A stretch of 64,000 bases of DNA from Cyanidioschyzon merolae. Taxonomy: Eukaryota. This document shows positions 16,872-64,000 of this stretch, piece by piece. The notes below the pieces were generated by a model. That model ran no database searches. It had not been told where the DNA came from and saw only the letters and a program-made list of their open reading frames with translations. The stretch's first letter is position 1, and each line of letters begins with the position of its first letter. The stretch is from NCBI GenBank assembly GCA_000091205.1, contig AP006486.2; one strand, written 5' to 3'. The position numbers were made by a program, and so were the translations under genes.

Positions 16872-17013
16872 GGGCTAGCGCACTCGCACTCCGGGCATCC
16901 ATCTGCGCTGGGCTGGGGAGCGCACTCGCACTCCGGGCATCCATCTGCGCTGGGCTGGGGAGCGCACTCGAACTCCGGGCATCCATCTGCGCTGGGCTGG
17001 GGAGCGCGCTTCA
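16872..17013. repeat. 48-bp minisatellite, about 3 tandem copies (unit gcgcactcgcactccgggcatccatctgcgctgggctggggagc)
   Basis: The direct tandem repetition is visible in the sequence. It produces the repeated CAPQPSADGCPECE peptide in a spurious minus-strand ORF. Confidence 0.85.
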
Positions 17014-37512: not shown

Positions 37513-37750
37513 GGTCGTAAAGTTCGTCTCTTTTACAGATATCAATCATCGTTGCCTTTGCTGGCTTTTATCGGGAGGGGTTCCTCTTCCGCTCAGTTGT
37601 CTCTGGCCCTGAATACGTCTATCTTCCGTATATACTAAAGTTCGTCTCTTTTACAGAGATCAATCATCGTTGCCTTTGCCGGCTTTTATCGGGACGGGTG
37701 CCTCTTCGTCTCAGTTGTCTCTGGCTCTGAATACGTTTATCTCTCCTGGC
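37513..37750. repeat. Direct repeat pair, ~115 bp, 2 copies about 124 bp apart start to start (unit ...aagttcgtctcttttacagatatcaatcatcgttgcctttgctggcttttatcggga...)
   Basis: Two near-identical copies are visible at ~37513-37625 and ~37637-37750 in an intergenic region. Confidence 0.8.
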
Positions 37751-53700: not shown

Positions 53701-54807
53701 TAGCCCGAACCCGCGAGTCCTGTGTGTGTGTGGGTGTGTTTGTGCGCGCGCACCGGAACGCCTACCAGCCGCCCCGCTGGATGTCCGTGCGTCATGCCGC
53801 TAACTATATGCATCTACATAAGGTTGCATGCTTCGACGCTGCACGATAAAACGGAGTGCTTGGAATGCATTTTTAGAAACAGAGTGCCTGCGCAGCGATC
53901 GGATTCGAGGCGCTCGGCGTGCTCTGGGTGGAAAGCAAATCATCGACATGTATCGAGCGTTTACGTTGTGTTGATGACCGGGACTTTGGTGCCCCCAGCG
54001 CTGGTTGGAGCGATCCCCCCGCTCTTCTTTAGCGCCTGTTCCAGGACTGTTGCCAAAAATGTCGACGGCGCACCGCATTTCTACACCGTCCGTTAAGATG
54101 GTGGTGGTTGCCGCAGTGCAGCGCTCGGGTACTGCTTTTTTGCGCTACGCAGGCGTGCTAGCCTGGTATCCCAGAAGTAAAACAAAAACGTTCAACGACC
54201 ATGGAGGGTAAATACGTATACCCACGCGCATGCGCCTCTGCGCCGTTCGTGACCGGTCCCCTGGCATCTATTTCGGTTTCTAACAGTACACTTCGAGCAG
54301 CAGAGGTTGCTAGATGAAGTTAGATCGCCTCAGCTCCCCTGGTCTCTCGTATTCAGCATCCCACATCGTCTGCTGCTGGGTGACGGCGCTGGTGTCTCAG
54401 TTGACGAGCTCCCTGCGTGCATTGAGGCTGGTGGAGCTCCCCAGCACAAGGAGGCCTCTAATTCGAGCCCTCTGTGGCACTGCAGTAAGGTCATCGTCCC
54501 GTAGCGCAAACGCCCTCTCTCGCCTATTTCCCCCTTCTTCTTCGTCGACACTTGCGCTTTTCCCTCGATGGGTGGAGAAAACAGAATTTTTCGTTTTCTT
54601 TCCCGGCAGCCGGTGATGACAGCCTTCGAGGATCCCCGACGCCCATCTTTGCTCCTTTCCCTTGGATTCTTACTTTTCTTCAAATGAGCGCACGTCGAAC
54701 GCATCCGCTCTAAACTGCGAAAACGAATTTGACGACACGCATCTGGGAGTCGGAGCACGATTGATGAGAAAGACTATAAGCACTGAACGATGACTCGCTG
54801 CGTCAGC

Positions 54808-55290
54808 CTAGTCCATGAGGTCCTCCGGCCGAATGCGATCAAGATATCGGGGCTGTAGACCAGACCCGCCGCAGTTGAGACAAACCACAGTGCTTCGCCC
54901 CTTGCAGTACGAACATTCCTTTTCATACTGCCCGAAACCGAGCTTGCCGCGGCCCTGGCAGTACCCGCAGGCAACCTGACCGTCCCCACGACATTCCACG
55001 CAGGGTTCACGCCGACCCCGGGCCTTCCCGCGCTCACCTTGCACCTCTGTGAACGCGAGCAAACCTATACCCGCAATGGTACCCAATCCGCCGACTATCA
55101 GGGCAGTCAGCACCTCATCCGATAGCTCCATAGAAAGCGACGGCCGGCCAGTCTTCGAACTCGGCGAACGAAACGCGACGTGTCGCTGCCGTCGTTCAAG
55201 TCGCTCCTGGCGCTCTATCGCCCAGTACTTCCAACCGTGAAAGCAGCAGCCCCGTGGCTTCCTTAACACATTTACCGAACCCACGAACAT
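54808..55290 (-). CDS. DnaJ-type zinc-finger (CxxCxGxG x4) protein with a TM segment and an R/S-rich presequence (BSD2/LQY1-like organellar zinc-finger protein)
   Basis: CVECRGDG, CGYCQGRGK, CSYCKGRS and CLNCGGSG are four CxxCxGxG repeats, as in the DnaJ cysteine-rich domain. They are preceded by the hydrophobic segment LTALIVGGLGTIAGIGLLAF and by MFVGSVNVLRKPRG...RRQRHVAFRSPSS. The longer in-frame extension to 55446 runs into the ~109-bp tandem repeat and is rejected. Confidence 0.55.
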   Translation of the reverse strand: MFVGSVNVLRKPRGCCFHGWKYWAIERQERLERRQRHVAFRSPSSKTGRPSLSMELSDEVLTALIVGGLGTIAGIGLLAFTEVQGERGKARGRREPCVECRGDGQVACGYCQGRGKLGFGQYEKECSYCKGRSTVVCLNCGGSGLQPRYLDRIRPEDLMD

Positions 55291-55404
55291 GAACGAAGCC
55301 CTAGTTGAGAAGCGCTCTCGCTTCCAGAGGCGTCTGCTATGCGTCTGCGAACGTTCACAATAGGGCTCGCGGAGAGCGACGCTTATTCGGGCACCGAGCG
55401 ATGT

Positions 55405-55885
55405 CGCTGGCATCAGCGCTGCGAAGCGATGCGCATGCCTCGCCATTCAAGTTCTGTCCATATGTATACATTCCAGTATACTATGTACATTCTGCAAGTG
55501 TCGCCAGCGCTGGGCATCGCACCAGCGCTGCGAAGCGATGCGCATGCCTCGCCATTCAAGTTCTGTCCATATGTATACATTCCAGCATACGTATGTACAT
55601 TCTGCAAGTGTCGCTAGCGCTGGGCATCGCACCAGCGCTGCGAAGCGATGCGCATGCCTCGCCATTCAAGTTCTGTCCATATGTATACATTCCAGTATAC
55701 TATGTACATTCTGCAAGTGTCGCCAGCGCTGGGCATCGCACCAGCGCTGCGAAGCGATGCGCATGCCTCGCCATTCAAGTTCTGTCCATATGTATACATT
55801 CCAGTATACCTATGTACATTCTGCAAGTGTCGCTAGCGCTGGACATCGCACCAGCGCTGCGAAGCGATGCGCACATGAAGCATTG
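55405..55885. repeat. Tandem minisatellite, ~109-bp unit x ~4.3 copies
   Basis: The motif accagcgctgcgaagcgatgcgcatgcctcgccattcaagttctgtccatatgtatacattccag... starts at 55415, 55523, 55633, 55742 and 55852. It lies between the divergently transcribed DnaJ-zinc-finger gene and the fumarase gene, and creates repeated spurious ORFs on both strands. Confidence 0.9.
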
Positions 55886-55961
55886 GCGTGCGCGGAGCGC
55901 GACTAGCGAGCCTCTCGTTCATTCGCTCGTTATCAGGCGGTGGCAGCGGCTATCCGCGTTC

Positions 55962-57623
55962 ATGAGCGCGCAGCGTGCCAGAGCCGTTTCGAGTCTCTGG
56001 GCGAGCTTGCGGCCACTGGAAGCGTACTTGGCAGCAGGAGAGTATCAGGGTGGGCCTGTGTTTCAGCGAAGACCGGCTTCGACCGGGATCCGCGGTGGTA
56101 CCTCTCACAACGCAGAGCACGCGCTGCCTGGGGGTGGCGTGCGCAGCGCCCTTCAGACGACGCCGCCGGTTGCATCGTACACGCGCTGCTTCGGCAGCTC
56201 TGTGGAGCGTCCAGCAATGCAGGGAGATACCAGAACAGAGCGAGATACATTCGGCCCGATCCTGGTGCCTGCAGATAGGTACTATGGTGCCCAGACAGCG
56301 CGTTCGCTTCGCAACTTTGATATCTGTCGTGACACAGATCGCATGCCACGCCCAATAATCCATGCGTTTGGCGAACTAAAGCGTGCAGCCGCCAAGGCTA
56401 ATATGGCGCTGGGCGTTCTCGATTCGCGGCTGGGAGAGATGATCGTGCGCGCAGCGGAGGAAGTTGCGACTGGCAAGCTCGATGAGCATTTCCCGCTCGT
56501 TGTATGGCAGACAGGCTCGGGTACACAGACCAATATGAACGTGAATGAGGTTATCAGTAATAGAGCAATTGAAATGCTTGGTGGAGAACTTGGATCCAAG
56601 TCCCCGGTGCATCCGAATGATCACGTGAATATGAGCCAGAGCAGTAATGACACGTTTCCGAGTGCTATGCATATCGCTGCTGTACTCGAAATAGAACGCA
56701 AACTGCTTCCAGGCCTGCGCGATCTCCGAAACGCATTGCAGAACAAGTCCACCGCTTTTGAGGACATCATTAAAATCGGCCGAACGCATCTGCAGGACGC
56801 CGTGCCCTTAACGCTGGGCCAAGAGTTCAGTGCCTATGTGCAACAGCTCGAGTTCGGCGAGCAGCGGATGCTGAACGCGCTGGAGCGTCTTCGATATCTG
56901 GCCATCGGCGGAACCGCGGTGGGCACTGGGCTGAACTCACGACGAGGGTTTGATGAGCTCGTCTGCCGGGAGCTAAGCGAGCACACTGGAACCGTCTTCC
57001 GGCCTGCACCCAACAAATTCGAAGCGCTGGCTGCCCATGATGCCATGGTCGAGACCAGCGGCGCGCTGAATACACTGGCGGTGAGCCTCACGAAGATCGC
57101 CAATGACATTCGCTTTCTGGGAAGCGGTCCGCGCTGTGGCCTCGGTGAACTGCAACTCCCCGAAAATGAGCCCGGAAGCAGCATCATGCCGGGGAAGGTC
57201 AACCCAACGCAATGCGAAGCCATGACGATGCTCTGCGCCCAGGTCATGGGCAATCATGTCGCAGTGACGATTGGCGGAAGCAATGGGCATTTTCAGTTGA
57301 ACGTGTACAAGCCGCTCATAGCGTATAACGTGCTCCATTCGACACGCTTGCTCACCGATGGAATGAAATCGTTCGAGTTGCATTGTGTGCATGGCATTGA
57401 GGCGAACCGCGAACGCATTGCCTTCCTTGTGGAGCGCTCGCTGATGCTCGTCACTGCCCTAAATCCAGTGATAGGCTACGACAAGGCAGCAGCGATCGCG
57501 AAGAAAGCTCATCGTGAAAACTTGTCTTTACGGGAAGCGGCTCTCGCTAGTGGCTACATCACCGCGGAAGCGTTCGACCAAGCAGTAGATCCGCGCCGCA
57601 TGCTGGCCCCCGCGGAAACGTAA
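55962..57623 (+). CDS. Fumarate hydratase, class II (fumarase), with a putative mitochondrial presequence; an alternative downstream start at 56217 would give a presequence-less form
   Basis: Near-identity to human FH over long stretches: [86 protein letters not shown] and the signature [65 protein letters not shown]... at 55962 looks like a targeting peptide, and the mature region begins near [14 protein letters not shown] at 56217. The in-frame ORF back to 55305 runs through the tandem repeat and is not called. Confidence 0.93.
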
Positions 57624-59307
57624 CCGAAGAGCTCCATCCTCGGTATTCGTTAGCTAGCGATCGCGGCAGCAACGGACCATGAGGAGACGGGGGCGCACCT
57701 GCGAAGCACCAGCACAACAGGAACATGGCTTCCAGGGCAGGATTGCGGTTCCTCCCGATGCGTTGCAGTTTCCGGATGTAGTGCGCAAGAGAATGCTCGG
57801 TGTGCGTTACGCTACCTCAACTTGCCTTCCAGCTGGCAACAGCACCGCTGTTTTCGGCCGGTGCAAGGGCGCTACGCCAACAAAAGCATCCTTACCATTG
57901 CTGCTGTCTCCGAATCGCTAGACGCGCACAAAATGTCAACAAAGTGCCACGTTGTGCGCGTTGCCTCCTACAGAGTGCAAATGCAGTTGCGCAGCTTCCG
58001 TGTCGCGCGTGCATACACCCAGTCCAAACCGTGGTACCGCTACCTTGTCTCTCATGTGAAGTGGCGACTCGCGCTGGTGCGTTCCTGGCACACGTAGAAA
58101 CAGGGCGCCGTGGTATTCCTGCGGCGTGCTGACTACCCAGAGCTCTGCGGAGTGCTCGGCGTTCGCTAGTAGCTTTCGTAGCCGTGTCTTCATTGTAGCG
58201 CATTTGGGGCGAGCATCCCCGACGCAGCAGCCTAGGTTCAGTGCGGCGATCCGGGAGCGATTTGCTTCGCTACACAATTCGCTCTTCGCATCGGTTCCAC
58301 CAGTTCACTGGAAACAGAGAGAGATTATGGAAACCTGATCGTTTTTCGGGGCACTGGAGACCTGATCGAATGCATGCTCGTGACCGGACAGAAGCGAGCC
58401 ATTTCAAGTCTTGACCTTGTGTTCGGCTCGCATTCAAGGTGCAGCCTTGGTGATCGCTCCGGCTTGTCGAAGCGGCTATGTGGCGGTCACGCTGGAGACT
58501 GACTTGGTTCAGTCCGTGTTTTTGGATGCAATACAGTCTTCAGGTGGAATTCCTGGTACCAGAACGAGCGCGCCGCCTGCCGACGACCTGAAGACACAAC
58601 GGTAGCGTCGCGTCGTTGAAGGGTCTATGTCAACAAAAGTGCAACAGCTGATGTGGGTTGGCCGGGATTCGTTTGGTGCTTGCGCCAATGCGAACCTCAT
58701 CGGACGCAAACAGATACCGAACCAGAAAGAAAACAACACTAAACGACACATGATCATACCGCAGCGGAAACGTATGCAAAGCACGACCTACGCGTTTGCG
58801 CTAGAGCGGTGGCGGCTGCGGCGGCTGCTTTGAGCAAAACGAACGAGGAAACCGCAAGCCTGACCTTCGCGATCACAACGTAACCAACCGACCCGCATTC
58901 CAGAGTGTCGATAGCACCACTCCTATGCATAAGGCAACTGGCGATGGACCCTGTCCATAGCGCAACACTGGTGGAGCTGGCTCAGCCTGCTGGCCCGAGC
59001 GCGCTCCCCGTAGAGCGAATGCCCCTACCGCTGCCGCTACGACAGTTGCTGCTGTTGCAGCTCGACTTGTTTTCATCCACCCCTCGGTCTCCAAACACGC
59101 TCAAAAACCCATGCTCAGGTGTCGAGGACGGAAACGCTGCAGTGAATACGTTCGATTGCCGCATACCTCGAAGCAGTACGTCGAAAGCTGCCCGCCGGCA
59201 TCGCGCCGCTGGCTCGACGACTGACCAGGAGCAGGGCCTGCTTCGAGCAGCTGAACCGCTGGCGGCTCTTTCCCGCTGCACCAGTCGTATCAACCAGCTC
59301 GAAGGTA

Positions 59308-59976
59308 ATGATAGAGACTCCAACCCATACAACAGAACCGATAGTCACAGGTTCATCTGTTCTTGGAGTCCAGTGCGTGGACGGTGTCGTGCTTGCCTGT
59401 GACACGCTTGCCTCATACGGTTCGCTGGCGCGGTTTCAACGCATCACGAGGCTGCACCAGCCGGCGCCTGGTGTCGTTATCGCTGGTGGCGGAGAGTACT
59501 CTGACCTGCAACAGTTATTTCGGATCACGGACAATATCTTTCGCCAAGAGTTCTGTCAAGAAGACGGCTATGAGCTGTCGCCGCGCGCTCTCCACAGCTA
59601 TCTTGCGCGTGTGTTGTACGGAAGACGCTCGCGAATGGACCCGTTGTATAACAGCCTAGCGGTCGCAGGGAAGGGTCGCTTCCTGGGCTGCATCGATCTC
59701 TACGGCACCGCCTTTGAGTCGGAAGCGGTGGCGACCGGCATAGGTGCGTTGCTAGCCCTGCCTTTGATCCGGAAACAGTGGCACGCAGCGCTCGCTATGG
59801 ATGAGGGCGTGCGTTTACTCGAAGAGTGTCTTCGGGTGCTTTACTATCGTGACTGTCGCGCGCTCCGATCGGTGCAAGTTGCTAAGGTGTCGGATAGTGG
59901 AGAGGTGCTGATTTCCGAGCCATACGAGCTATCGAACCTGCAGTGGAAGGTTGCGCAAGCTGCTGAAGAGGTCTAG
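59308..59976 (+). CDS. Proteasome subunit beta type-4 (beta-7) with a short propeptide
   Basis: [36 protein letters not shown]...[11 protein letters not shown]...[32 protein letters not shown]...[20 protein letters not shown] aligns with human PSMB4 [36 protein letters not shown]...GASGDYADFQYL...[32 protein letters not shown]...[20 protein letters not shown]. Confidence 0.85.
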   Translation: [222 protein letters not shown]

Positions 59977-60388: not shown

Positions 60389-61510
60389 TCATGGATTCAA
60401 GTCGAAGATGAGCTGCGCATCGCTCCGGTGTTTTCGGAGTATACCGACTGCCCCGGATGCCGCTTCGCATTCGCGCGTTTCTCCCATCGGTGACACTGTC
60501 CCTTCTGCGATTCGTTCATCTTCTGTTGCTGAGTCGCTTTGAATGAACGACTCACCTTCGAGCCATTCAAGCGTGGGTACACGCTCCGGATGAAGCATCT
60601 GTACTGCCGTTGCTTTCATGAACAGAACCCTCCTCAGTGCATGATTGTAGAAAAAGTAATTGAATGACCAGATGATTCCCGGTTCATGAAACGGTCCGTC
60701 AGTATCGTCTGCCTCGACATATGTATATATTTCGCAATTTGGGAAGGCAATGACTTGTTGGACGGTCGTCCAAAGACGTTCTCGAGTCCCAAGCAGCGAC
60801 GTCAGTGACTCACAGGACGATTGTCCGAGCGCGCTCGATGCCAGCGACTTGCCAGCGAGACCCCGCTGCGAGCACGGCGCCGACGCAACAACGCGCTCGT
60901 GGTCAAGCACTCGTTTCCTCCTATACGGAGCGGATGCGATCGCTAGCGTTCGGGCACTGGTTCCAGACTGAATTTGAGGACCACACCTCCCCGAAGCGTG
61001 CTGTCGCCTGCGAGGGATGCGTCCAATGCCAGATGGCCAATGGTCTTTCGCCGACAACGAGGTCGTGTTCCGGGGAAGGCCTCGGCGGAGGCTCTCGTGC
61101 TGCTCATCAATGTATCGGTACGCTTCTTGCAGTGCCAAATCAATGTCGTGTTGTACGGCTGTGGGCGGACATGGCTTGAAGCACTCGAGCGCTCTGGAGG
61201 CAACTCCCGAAAAGTCATATTCCGGAAACGATGTATTCAGCGCGAGAATGAGGTAGATGAGCACCTTGCGTTGATGAGGGTTCGTTCTTTGCGCACGCGC
61301 ACCGACACCCTGAGGCGAGACGCACTCGACTTGAGCTTGTTCGCTCAAACGGTTTTCCAGTGAATGCGCTACTTTCTTATCCGAGTTCGTCGCCTTGCAG
61401 GAGTACGTTTCCAAGACGCACGTGAGGACGGTGTGACCACCCGGGGGCAGCGGCACTTGGTTCAAGTCCGCATTCAGTGCCGAGACACTCGGCAAGTCCA
61501 TAAACTTCAT
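60389..61510 (-). CDS. Maf1, repressor of RNA polymerase III transcription
   Basis: The N-terminus MKFMDL...LNADL, the motif LNTSFPEYDFSGV (Maf1 signature PDYDFS), CEIYTYV, and GIIWSFNYFFYNHALRRVLF (Maf1 box C WSFNYFFYNKKLKR). The variable linker is S/R-rich. Confidence 0.85.
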   Translation of the reverse strand: MKFMDLPSVSALNADLNQVPLPPGGHTVLTCVLETYSCKATNSDKKVAHSLENRLSEQAQVECVSPQGVGARAQRTNPHQRKVLIYLILALNTSFPEYDFSGVASRALECFKPCPPTAVQHDIDLALQEAYRYIDEQHESLRRGLPRNTTSLSAKDHWPSGIGRIPRRRQHASGRCGPQIQSGTSARTLAIASAPYRRKRVLDHERVVASAPCSQRGLAGKSLASSALGQSSCESLTSLLGTRERLWTTVQQVIAFPNCEIYTYVEADDTDGPFHEPGIIWSFNYFFYNHALRRVLFMKATAVQMLHPERVPTLEWLEGESFIQSDSATEDERIAEGTVSPMGETRECEAASGAVGILRKHRSDAQLIFDLNP

Positions 61511-61845: not shown

Positions 61846-62494
61846 CCTCGAATCGCTCGTCGCCTGATGCGAGATGCTGCATTTGGGGCGCTGCTGTGAT
61901 CGTGCATCCTGCAGTGCACCTATAGCGGATATGGTACAGTGCACGATGGTGTATCCGTATTGGAGGATTCGAATTGCTCGTCGCCTGATGCGAGATGCTG
62001 CATTTAGGGCGCTGCTGTGATCGTGCATCCTGCAGTGCACCTATAACGGATATGGTGCAGTGCACGATGGTGTATCCGTATTGGAGGATTCGAATTGCTC
62101 GTCGCCTGATGCGAGATGCTGCATTTAGGGCGCTGCTGTGATCGTGCATCCTGCAGTGCACCTATAACGGATATGGTGCAGTGCACGATGGTGTATCCGT
62201 ATTGGAGGATTCGAATCGCTCGTCGCCTGATGCGAGATGCTGCATTTAGGGCGCTGCTGTGATCGTGCATCCTGCAGTGCACCTATAACGGATATGGTGC
62301 AGTGCACGATGGTGTATCCGTATTGGAGGATTCGAATTGCTCGTCGCCTGATGCGAGATGCTGCATTTGGGGCGCTGCTGTGATCGTGCATCCTGCAGTG
62401 CATCTATAGCGGATATGGTGCAGTGCACGATGGTGTATCCGTATTGGAGGATTCGAATCGTTCGTCGCCTGATGCGAGATGCTGCATTTAGGAC
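61846..62494. repeat. Tandem satellite-like array, 121-bp unit x ~5.3 copies
   Basis: The motif ctcgtcgcctgatgcgagatgctgcattt... recurs at 61856, 61977, 62098, 62219, 62340 and partially at 62461. Copies differ by a few substitutions. It generates a ladder of overlapping spurious minus-strand ORFs (MHCRMHDHSSA...). Confidence 0.9.
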
Positions 62495-63440: not shown

Positions 63441-63978
63441 GTTCTAGATATCCGATCCAGGATCACCATCAACACGTCCACTGAAGGGATCGTCATTCAT
63501 CTCACAGCATACTCTAGATACCGTACGCAGGATCACCATCAACACGTCCACTGATGGGATCGTCATTCATCTCACAGCATACTCTAGATATCCGATCCAG
63601 GATCACCATCAACACGTCCACTGTAGGGATTGTCATTCATCTCACAGCATACTCTAGATACCGTACGCAGGATCACCATCAACACGTCCACTGTAGGGAT
63701 TGTCATTCATCTCACAGCATACTCTAGATACCGTACGCAGGATCACCATCAACACGTCCACTGATGGGATCGTCATTCATCTCACAGCATACTCTAGATA
63801 TCCGATCCAGGATCACCATCAACACGTCCACTGTAGGGATTGTCATTCATCTCACAGCATGCTCTAGATACCGTACGCAGGATCACCATCAACACGTCCA
63901 CTGTAGGGATCGTCATTCATCTCACAGCATGCTCTAGATATCGTACGCAGAATCACCATCAACACGTCCACTGATGGG
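63441..63978. repeat. Tandem satellite-like array, 70-bp unit x ~7.7 copies, with two alternating unit variants
   Basis: gatcaccatcaacacgtccactg...gggat.gtcattcatctcacagcat.ctctagata... recurs every 70 bp from 63443. The variant tccgatccag and the variant ccgtacgcag alternate irregularly. The array ends ~20 bp before the window end. Confidence 0.9.
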
Positions 63979-64000
63979 ATCGTATCGAGCCAGCACGCGA

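Follow-up and report, generated by a model that had tools for sequence, protein, structure and literature searches.

Two in-frame start codons and a promoter minisatellite at the fumarase gene CMD058C of Cyanidioschyzon merolae

An open reading frame of 772 amino acids with a TTG start occupies positions 55305-57623 of the plus strand in the 64,000-nucleotide stretch of Cyanidioschyzon merolae DNA analyzed here (the window), passing through a tandem repeat before it enters a fumarase. The locus raises the question of where the protein begins, and whether two in-frame start codons may allow one gene to supply fumarase to both mitochondrion and cytosol. An earlier note on this DNA had taken the repeat-derived part as not coding and two downstream ATGs as a possible dual-targeting arrangement; the sequence features it described are all present at 55305-57623. 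The verdict reached here is of an ordinary annotated gene with a promoter minisatellite, accompanied by a two-AUG dual-targeting hypothesis that can be tested.

The fumarase gene and its divergent neighbour

The locus is on chromosome 4 of C. merolae 10D, and the gene is CMD058C (CmFUM). It faces a divergently transcribed neighbour across a common intergenic region.

55962..57623, plus strand: CMD058C / CmFUM coding sequence, 553 amino acids and a stop codon, exact match to BAM79142.1 / XP_005535428.1
57174..57203, plus strand: class II fumarase / aspartase-family signature loop of the GSSxMPxKxN type, residues 405-414, read in translation
54808..55131, minus strand: divergent neighbour encoding 107 amino acids, with a single transmembrane helix, a pair of CxxCxGxG zinc-finger motifs and a weak BSD2-like match
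55132..55961, no strand: divergent intergenic/promoter region of 830 bp between the two start codons, common to both genes

CMD058C is a class II fumarase (FumC/FH, aspartase-fumarase superfamily), as established by both Pfam domains (Lyase_1, PF00206, E = 2e-113; FumaraseC_C, PF10415, E = 1.9e-24), the signature loop, the matches to solved fumarases, which run from residues 86/90 to about 550 (human FH, E = 9e-205; Escherichia coli FumC, E = 5e-172), and the activity measured for the characterized enzyme, reported to be the sole fumarase in C. merolae (PMC7525151). Public records and literature already cover the gene, its enzymology and its annotation as a precursor, the entry reading "fumarate hydratase precursor" with 553 amino acids and a start at ATG 55962. 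Homology to the solved class II structures begins at residues 79-91 of the 553-amino acid form, and these alignments confirm the earlier placement of ATG 56217 at the conserved N terminus; Lyase_1 begins 14 residues past the methionine of ATG 56217. The divergent arrangement is shared with related species, with a 107-amino acid orthologue of the neighbour at the same position in Cyanidiococcus, L014 and L017 and a 180-amino acid gene matching BSD2_CRD at that position in Cyanidium. A look-up of the exact 107-amino acid product matched JGI contigs only.

A non-coding minisatellite in the shared promoter

55400..55873, no strand: non-coding minisatellite with units of 109/110/109/110 bp and a 36-nt partial unit, a 219-bp dimer repeated twice
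55875..55877, plus strand: AUG0, an in-frame ATG one base past the array that would add 29 residues, upstream of the transcript 5' ends seen

The array consists of near-identical units placed head to tail inside the divergent intergenic DNA, with the full units in register at 55400-55837 followed by the 36-nt stub. Tandem Repeats Finder reports it at 55410-55873 with a period of 109, 4.2 copies, 97% matches and a score of 875. Each unit combines a palindromic, GC-rich stretch (CCAGCGCTGG; TGGGCATCGC/GCGATGCGCA) with an AT-rich stretch that includes ATGTATACAT, and every unit has three perfect palindromes: ATGTATACAT, CCAGCGCTGG and CATATG, which resembles an E-box. Against an expectation of 0.01, the window contains five copies of the 10-nt palindrome ATGTATACAT, four of them in the array, and by this count and the repeat score the array is far beyond chance. 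Unstable tandem repeats occur in yeast promoters (promoter minisatellites or VNTRs), and the head-to-tail units in an intergenic promoter are a feature common to those repeats and the C. merolae array, which is distinguished by its long unit (109/110 bp) and the 219-bp dimer organization.

Four units are present in 10D, three in L013, two in L021 and L023 and one in L011, L027, L033 and L034, all but 10D being short-read assemblies in which collapse is possible. Neither the array nor copies of its unit are found at the syntenic loci of Cyanidiococcus, L014, Cyanidium and L017, where the gene order is the same, and in the JGI metagenomes the unit is found at this locus only. A search of the window, five related loci and the JGI metagenomes outside the locus found no ancestral single copy and no dispersed copies of the unit, and an Rfam scan of 54700-56400 gave no RNA family match. 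The array is a non-coding, locus-specific promoter minisatellite, and it is apparently young, lineage-specific and variable in copy number.

Whether the array also acts as a working cis-regulatory module, with four copies of palindromic factor-binding sites tuning one or both of the flanking genes, is doubtful, although such a role would be compatible with the main explanation given below. Counted from the fumarase 5' ends the array spans about -60 to -530, and the ATG of the neighbour is about 270 bp away; this placement, the perfect palindromes in every unit and the range of one to four units among assemblies are in keeping with a regulatory function. Set against this, the sister species manage without the array, the copy numbers come from short-read assemblies, and the DNA folding of one unit is no more stable than that of shuffled sequence (z = -0.39). 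Four other long-period arrays are also present in the window, and a sequence comparison of all five finds them unrelated, suggesting general neutral minisatellite expansion.

The long frame is open across the array only because two units amount to 109 + 110 = 219 bp, or 73 codons, which is also why its repeated peptide is present twice; stops are present in the array's other two frames. The first in-frame ATG of the long ORF is at 55401. The earlier note had assigned about 220 amino acids to the array, and 219 codons do lie upstream of ATG 55962, but only about 155 of these are array-derived with the remainder coming from the unique flanks. Spurious ORFs of at least 200 amino acids are common in this window of 56% GC. 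Codon-usage log-odds are clear for the mature part of the protein (0.22) and ambiguous, not decisive, for the presequence (0.05) and the array (0.056); the presequence is scored as weakly as the opening 85 codons of other genes, the score of the left flank is negative, and the array has no codon-position GC pattern.

It is highly improbable that the long ORF is real, with the array carried in transcripts and ATG 55401 or the array ATGs adding a repeat-encoded N-terminal domain. The frame is indeed open from 55305 in the 10D reference, the codon-usage score of the array in that frame is weakly positive, and three contigs reach the array edge. However, whether the frame stays open is a matter of copy number, the three units of assembly L013 interrupt it, the sister species lack the array and have no counterpart of the ORF, the adapter-marked transcript 5' ends lie downstream of the array, Pfam finds no domain in the array-derived part, and the public annotation ignores this part. 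Loss of the frame with copy number, the sister species and the 5' ends had already largely refuted this reading, and they bear out the earlier judgement that the array-derived part is not coding. The open frame through the array is accidental, an artefact that annotators have rightly ignored.

A third in-frame ATG that the earlier note overlooked, AUG0 at 55875, abuts the array, and comparable upstream in-frame ATGs are present in L012 and L014.

Transcript 5' ends, the N-terminal extension and the second AUG

55922..55945, plus strand: transcript 5'-end cluster, inferred transcription start region, from adapter-fused, chimeric and plain contig ends
55962..56216, plus strand: N-terminal extension of 85 codons opened by AUG1 (ATG 55962), putative mitochondrial presequence, with no ATG in any frame from 55965 on
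56184..56195, plus strand: R-C-F-G, residues 75-78, candidate R-3 type processing-peptidase site from a regular-expression scan
56217..56219, plus strand: AUG2 (Met86), putative initiation codon for a cytosolic form lacking the presequence, with the conserved RTERDTFG five residues further on

The transcript contigs that give these 5' ends represent environmental populations with 99.6-99.9% identity to strain 10D rather than that strain, and their library types were deduced from adapters, not metadata. The Illumina adapter (...GTGCTCTTCCGATCT) is fused at 55933/4 (L008), 55945 (L029 and L031) and 55941/2 (L032) in four independent samples, all oriented as the 5' end of sense RNA in stranded libraries. 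Chimeric joins are located at 55942 (L030) and 55944 (L028) and plain contig ends at 55922 (L004) and 55942 (L005). Up to AUG1, the leader has 17-28 nt when counted from the adapter-marked ends and reaches 40 nt from a single plain contig end. Transcription would start at roughly 55934-55945, about 60-70 bp downstream of the array, and since this is downstream of both the array and ATG 55875, these would lie outside the main mRNA. This sequence-level estimate of the transcription start for CMD058C makes ATG 55962 the first AUG in the mRNAs observed, and this ATG, which the earlier note had proposed as the presequence start, is also the start in the public annotation. Transcripts from upstream of 55405 were named in that note as evidence that would speak against it, and the adapter-marked ends are instead at about 55934-55945.

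Several other contig ends require separate treatment. Three contigs start at 55844, at the array edge, so that some RNA or DNA reads extend into the array and minor longer RNAs may exist, but this position coincides exactly with the repeat boundary at k=31 and was rejected as a transcription start. Contig 3' ends at 57713, 57940 and 57998 directly precede SNPs at 57714, 57941 and 57999 (graph branch points) and were rejected as poly(A) sites. Two plain contig 5' ends fall inside the presequence region, at 56052 and 56179, neither of them at a known SNP branch point.

The spacing between ATG 55962 and ATG 56217 is 85 codons, as claimed earlier, and the extension so encoded is arginine-rich, with the first acidic residue at position 20 and five R/K against two D/E among the first 40 residues. 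In the sister species the extensions are about 87 amino acids with 4-6 R/K against 1-4 D/E over the same distance. The length is kept (85, 87 and 87 codons) with the frame open, and the sequences are not alignable between species. An R-x-[FLY]-[GS] motif is located at residue 75 or 76 in the three species (residue 76 in the two sister species), and the extensions of the more distant Cyanidium (64 amino acids) and L017 (75 amino acids) are shorter and have none. Among about 12 strain sequences the presequence has 4 variable sites in 255 nt (2 non-synonymous) and the mature part 3 in 1407 nt, showing relaxed constraint on the presequence with too few changes to separate weakly constrained coding from non-coding sequence. 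A pGEX construct recovered from public reads is without residues 1-21. Simple composition heuristics and the "precursor" annotation characterize the extension as a putative mitochondrial presequence; with its basic character and few acidic residues it would direct the protein to mitochondria, and its removal would probably take place near the F-G bond of R75-C-F-G. The citric acid cycle is placed in the mitochondrion of C. merolae (PMC4586181).

Human FH Met44 aligns two residues upstream of Met86. All Cyanidiophyceae homologues examined have an in-frame methionine at a distance of 1-24 residues on the N-terminal side of the conserved core, with Met86 identical in the closest relatives. Of 63 eukaryotic homologues whose extension reaches 30 amino acids or more, 35 have a methionine 1-15 residues before the core compared with 7 at 16-30 residues. 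A methionine near the core is general among eukaryotic fumarase entries, and two candidate starts alone prove nothing; the residue could be left over from the bacterial start codon, or could be an artefact where gene models of the comparison set extend too far. Given the 5' ends at 55934-55945, both AUGs are in the mRNA, and in 10D they are separated by an interval (55965 to 56216) with no ATG in any frame. From AUG1 to the next in-frame AUG the interval is free of ATGs in any frame for 252, 258, 117, 177 and 225 nt in five species (Fisher combined p = 0.002), a statistic that weakens to p = 0.08 when out-of-frame ATGs only are counted because the definition of the interval itself excludes in-frame ATGs. 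Start-codon context was rejected as evidence: in each of the five species position -3 of AUG1 is a pyrimidine, but the same is true of the first ATG in about half of the window's long ORFs, and positions -3/+4 are uninformative.

One fumarase gene and possibly two compartments

On balance we lean toward a single fumarase gene with a non-coding promoter minisatellite and an AUG1-first mRNA, which encodes a presequence and permits leaky scanning to AUG2. Translation from AUG1 would give the annotated 553-amino acid precursor. Some ribosomes would pass AUG1, because the leader is 17-28 nt and no other AUG occurs in the next 252 nt, and would start at AUG2 to make a 468-amino acid enzyme without the presequence, staying in the cytosol as has been proposed for rat liver fumarase. 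Two-AUG dual targeting is offered as a hypothesis from sequence, for which the conserved second methionine, the ATG-free interval and the very short leader give circumstantial support. The accessible literature yielded no localization, protein N-terminus or translation-initiation data for either CMD058C form.

Two genes, FUM1 and FUM2, supply mitochondrial and cytosolic fumarase in Arabidopsis. Both organisms are photosynthetic eukaryotes, and in contrast C. merolae is reported to have a sole fumarase gene (PMC7525151). The closest layout is that of rat liver fumarase, for which reviews (PMC6068284, PMC13655608) describe a single mRNA bearing two in-phase AUGs (Tuboi et al. 1990). As in C. merolae there is one gene, the upstream AUG opens a presequence (putative in C. 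merolae) and the second in-frame AUG lies few residues before the core, with no intervening AUG, so that leaky scanning is mechanically possible. The C. merolae extension is about twice as long (85 compared with about 43 amino acids).

A plausible though less probable alternative is that AUG1 alone is used, the 553-amino acid precursor being the sole product and Met86 a silent relic of the bacterial start, with the cytosolic pool absent or formed by a reverse movement of the yeast type. Yeast FUM1, like CMD058C, is a single gene with an N-terminal presequence and achieves dual localization from one translation product, through processing and then reverse translocation (PMC13655608), a mechanism that needs no second AUG. 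This precedent, the position of AUG1 as first AUG, the reported mitochondrial location of the citric acid cycle and the p = 0.08 of the stricter count all agree with the use of AUG1 alone. It accounts less readily for the methionine that persists by the core across the Cyanidiophyceae though the surrounding residues and the extension are not alignable, for the strong enrichment of methionine at that position among eukaryotic homologues, for the very short leader, and for the presence of one fumarase gene in C. merolae. A second mRNA class starting between AUG1 and AUG2 and encoding only the 468-amino acid form is unlikely. Its precedent is human FH, where mRNAs that contain or lack the first AUG arise from alternative transcription starts (Dik et al. 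2016, cited in PMC6068284), and the two-AUG layout is similar, with Met44 in an equivalent position offset by two residues in the alignment. The plain ends at 56052 and 56179 would fit such transcripts, but they are weak, carry no adapter and may be coverage running out, whereas all four adapter-marked ends are upstream of AUG1; the ATG-free interval, unneeded under this model, is nevertheless observed.

Returning to leaky scanning, it is a tentative suggestion that the single fumarase of C. merolae, and that of Cyanidiophyceae generally, is divided between mitochondrion and cytosol by scanning from an AUG 17-28 nt off the cap to a retained bacterial start codon at the mammalian position, with the tuning of expression among hot-spring strains by minisatellite copy number a lesser possibility. 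If true, the two-AUG device would be ancient and widespread, against a recent argument that it is lineage-specific and was invented late (PMC13655608). C. merolae is genetically tractable, with one mitochondrion and one fumarase gene, and is suited to asking if the mammalian-type two-AUG route operates in red algae. The practical import is small, the gene and annotation being public and the upstream ORF an artefact. The locus also carries a warning that intergenic long-period minisatellites of C. merolae make long spurious in-frame extensions on both flanking genes: the naive ORF of the neighbour likewise extends into the array, to ATG 55446.

Gene identity and neighborhood of CMD058C

The 553-amino acid translation from the ATG at 55962 is identical to BAM79142.1/XP_005535428.1 of Cyanidioschyzon merolae 10D (513,455-bp chromosome), publicly annotated as "fumarate hydratase precursor," and the gene is CMD058C (CmFUM). 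The protein has the Pfam domains Lyase_1 and FumaraseC_C together with the class II fumarase signature, and both human FH (E = 1e-204) and Escherichia coli FumC (E = 1e-172) align from residue 86/90 to ~550, so that every tested feature assigns CMD058C to the class II fumarases. The published study names CmFUM as the sole fumarase of C. merolae and characterizes it as a thermostable enzyme (PMC7525151). A pGEX-6P plasmid recovered from public reads (L010, Logan SRR24202398; protein P0004) encodes GST, a PreScission site and CmFUM residues 22-553, adjoined by bla and lacI, and is evidently a laboratory expression construct. Its fumarase insert has no nucleotide match to the window and is thus codon-optimised.

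The main elements of the locus are as follows.

54808-55131, minus strand: zinc-finger gene, 107 amino acids, with a transmembrane helix, two CxxCxGxG motifs and weak BSD2-like matches
55410-55873: tandem array, period 109, 4.2 copies, 97% identity
55875, plus strand: third in-frame ATG, one base past the array, which would add 29 basic residues
55962, plus strand: ATG of the annotated start (AUG1)
56217, plus strand: ATG of Met86 (AUG2), 85 codons downstream of AUG1

The order RabGAP(-), zinc finger(-), fumarase(+), proteasome subunit(+) and Maf1(-) is shared by Cyanidiococcus yangmingshanensis (L012) and a third cyanidialean (L014), and the zinc-finger/fumarase pair is also retained in Cyanidium caldarium (L015) and a further Cyanidiophyceae locus (L017). 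Because the paired genes are divergent, the 830 bp between them (55132-55961) form a shared promoter region, 56% of which is occupied by the array.

The array and the long upstream reading frame

The long reading frame, the array and the two ATGs 85 codons apart described in the earlier note are all present in the sequence. The fumarase frame extends from a TTG at 55305 to 57623 (772 amino acids) with no stop across 55305-55961, and the other two forward frames are closed at 55615, 55834 and 55876 in one and at 55904 in the other. The array units lie in register at 109, 110, 109 and 110 bp followed by a 36-nt stub, forming a 219-bp dimer repeated twice; as 219 bp is 73 codons, the frame is kept open and the same peptide is seen twice. 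Long spurious frames are normal in this 56% GC genome, as at least four frames of 200 or more amino acids in the window are nested in or overlap larger ones.

The array-derived part of the frame had been judged not to be coding, and the comparisons bear this out. Other C. merolae populations, which are 99.1-99.9% identical, carry three units (L013), two (L021 and L023) or one (L011, L027, L033 and L034), these being short-read assemblies in which the array may have collapsed. The three-unit assembly has a stop inside the array in the fumarase frame, so the open frame depends on the number of units even if the assemblies are collapsed. No tandem repeat or recognizable unit copy is found at the related loci of the sister species, and an exact-match scan of JGI metagenomes found no unit outside the fumarase locus. 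Codon usage scores below zero in the left flank and ambiguously in the array, where the GC pattern by codon position that marks real genes is missing. The array region has no Rfam match, and one unit taken singly shows no excess of structure over shuffled sequence. The array is almost certainly non-coding and is an ordinary promoter minisatellite. On the minus strand the naive frame of the zinc-finger gene (54808-55446, 212 amino acids) runs as far as an ATG within the first unit of the array and is a mirror-image artefact, the real gene having 107 amino acids; prokaryote-style gene callers gave 160- and 212-amino acid versions on metagenome contigs.

Further arrays in the window lie at 16877-17007 (42 bp x3.1), 37518-37742 (118 bp x1.9), 61848-62492 (121 bp x5.3) and 63443-63983 (70 bp x7.7), with no kinship found among these four or with the 109-bp array. 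The Maf1 gene (60389-61510, minus strand) has the 121- and 70-bp arrays on its upstream side, and strain assembly L011 shows the 121-bp one in collapsed form. It appears that minisatellites between genes are a general trait of the C. merolae genome.

Transcript 5' ends and the N-terminal extension

Transcript 5' ends were read from public assemblies in which the Illumina adapter ...GTTCAGACGTGTGCTCTTCCGATCT is joined directly to genome sequence. An adapter at a fixed position is assembled only if many fragments end there, as expected for an RNA 5' end. Four contigs from four samples carry such a junction ahead of the fumarase.

Adapter-fused fumarase 5' ends (contig, sample, position)
L008, SRR29605728, 55933/4
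L029, SRR29605863, 55945
L031, SRR29605867, 55945
L032, JGI 3300050747, 55941/2

In two other contigs the genome sequence gives way to unrelated sequence, at 55942 (L030) and 55944 (L028), and another two just stop, at 55922 (L004) and 55942 (L005). From the fixed positions of the adapter junctions and their orientation, which in five of five cases (including one at 59154 for a minus-strand RNA) is that of an RNA 5' end in a stranded library, we infer that the fumarase mRNA starts at ~55934-55945, which is 60-70 bp past the end of the array, the samples being environmental and the library type deduced. The leader to AUG1 is 17-28 nt and has no ATG. Some reads do reach into the array, since three contigs begin at 55844, precisely where the k=31 edge of the repeat falls. 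The proposal to place the transcription start relative to the repeat is thereby answered in part, with the adapter-marked ends downstream of the array and some reads entering it.

The extension between AUG1 and Met86 has its first acidic residue at position 20 and contains five R/K versus two D/E in its first 40 residues. The extensions of Cyanidiococcus and L014, 87 amino acids each, fall in the same length class, and Cyanidium (64) and L017 (75) have shorter ones; every one of them is basic and has 0-4 acidic residues among its first 40. No similarity can be aligned between the extensions of different species, as is usual for targeting peptides. By pattern match alone, a candidate processing site, R-x-[F/L/Y]-[G/S], is placed at residue 75 or 76 of the proteins from the three closest species, where it precedes Met86 by 10-12 residues. 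Per site, variation within populations is ~7-fold higher in the extension than in the mature part, with too few changes to test selection. The extension is a putative mitochondrial presequence. The GST fusion begins at Tyr22, 21 residues having been removed by its builders, a removal not stated in the passages of PMC7525151 searched. Residue 27 is Glu (GAG, 56040) in 10D and Lys (AAG) in 12 of 12 environmental sequences covering the site; Glu27, private to 10D among the sequences compared, adds one acidic residue to the presequence.

The observed 5' ends place the ATG at 55875 outside the main mRNA. A three-codon upstream frame (ATG CGC ACA TGA, from 55867) overlaps it, and in-frame ATGs also occur 30 codons upstream of AUG1 in Cyanidiococcus (L012:5911) and 25 codons upstream in L014 (5698). 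A nearby patch common to C. merolae and L014 (RS..SE, VIRR; DNA CGTTATCAG) may be a promoter element, given that by the same 5' ends it lies outside the main mRNA.

At the 3' side, recurrent contig ends at 57713, 57940 and 57998 were ruled out as poly(A) sites and are SNP branch points. At 59154 contig L031 ends in an adapter whose orientation is that expected where a minus-strand RNA begins, and contig L001 (JGI 3300053675) also stops there. The two ends suggest an unannotated minus-strand transcript (57650-59154) converging on the fumarase 3' end and diverging from the proteasome-subunit gene (59308-59976). The interval has no convincing frame, and the spacer holding it is ~1.1 kb longer in C. 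merolae than in Cyanidiococcus.

The candidate second start codon

The earlier placing of AUG2 at the conserved N terminus holds, as Met86 lies five residues ahead of the invariant RTERDTFG, and alignment to the complete human precursor puts human Met44 two residues upstream of it. The presequence-less human form starts at Met44. Met86 is identical in Cyanidiococcus and L014, and an in-frame Met also precedes the core by 1-24 residues in each of the Cyanidium, L017 and Galdieria sequences. Of the 63 homologues whose extension is at least 30 amino acids long, 35 carry a Met within the 1-15 residues ahead of the core and 7 carry one at 16-30 (Fisher p = 1.5e-7, a count that allows neither for shared ancestry nor for possible mis-annotation of starts). 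Between AUG1 and the following in-frame AUG, five of five Cyanidiophyceae loci are free of ATGs in all frames, over 252, 258, 117, 177 and 225 nt (probability in composition-matched shuffles 0.06, 0.035, 0.29, 0.066 and 0.03; Fisher combined p = 0.002, or 0.08 counting out-of-frame ATGs only). Only 1.6% of 252-nt windows within the long frames of the window are ATG-free. Start-codon context is uninformative in this genome.

AUG1 is very probably the main start, and real use of AUG2 is a tentative reading that we consider somewhat doubtful. If it is used, a share of scanning ribosomes would skip AUG1 and initiate at AUG2, resembling the skipping proposed in the rat liver model; short leaders favor skipping of the first AUG. 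The gene layout of CMD058C is that of the rat and human two-AUG fumarases, whose defining property is two proteins in two compartments. By the known alternative routes, two fumarase pools arise from two transcript classes in human, by reverse translocation in yeast and from two genes in Arabidopsis (PMC6068284, PMC13655608). CMD058C represents no new kind of system and would be at most a new putative member of a known dual-targeting arrangement. Bases 1-100 of L001 repeat 56211-56310 and then join 56014, and this chimeric or duplicated junction, which begins six bases ahead of AUG2, is probably an assembly artefact.
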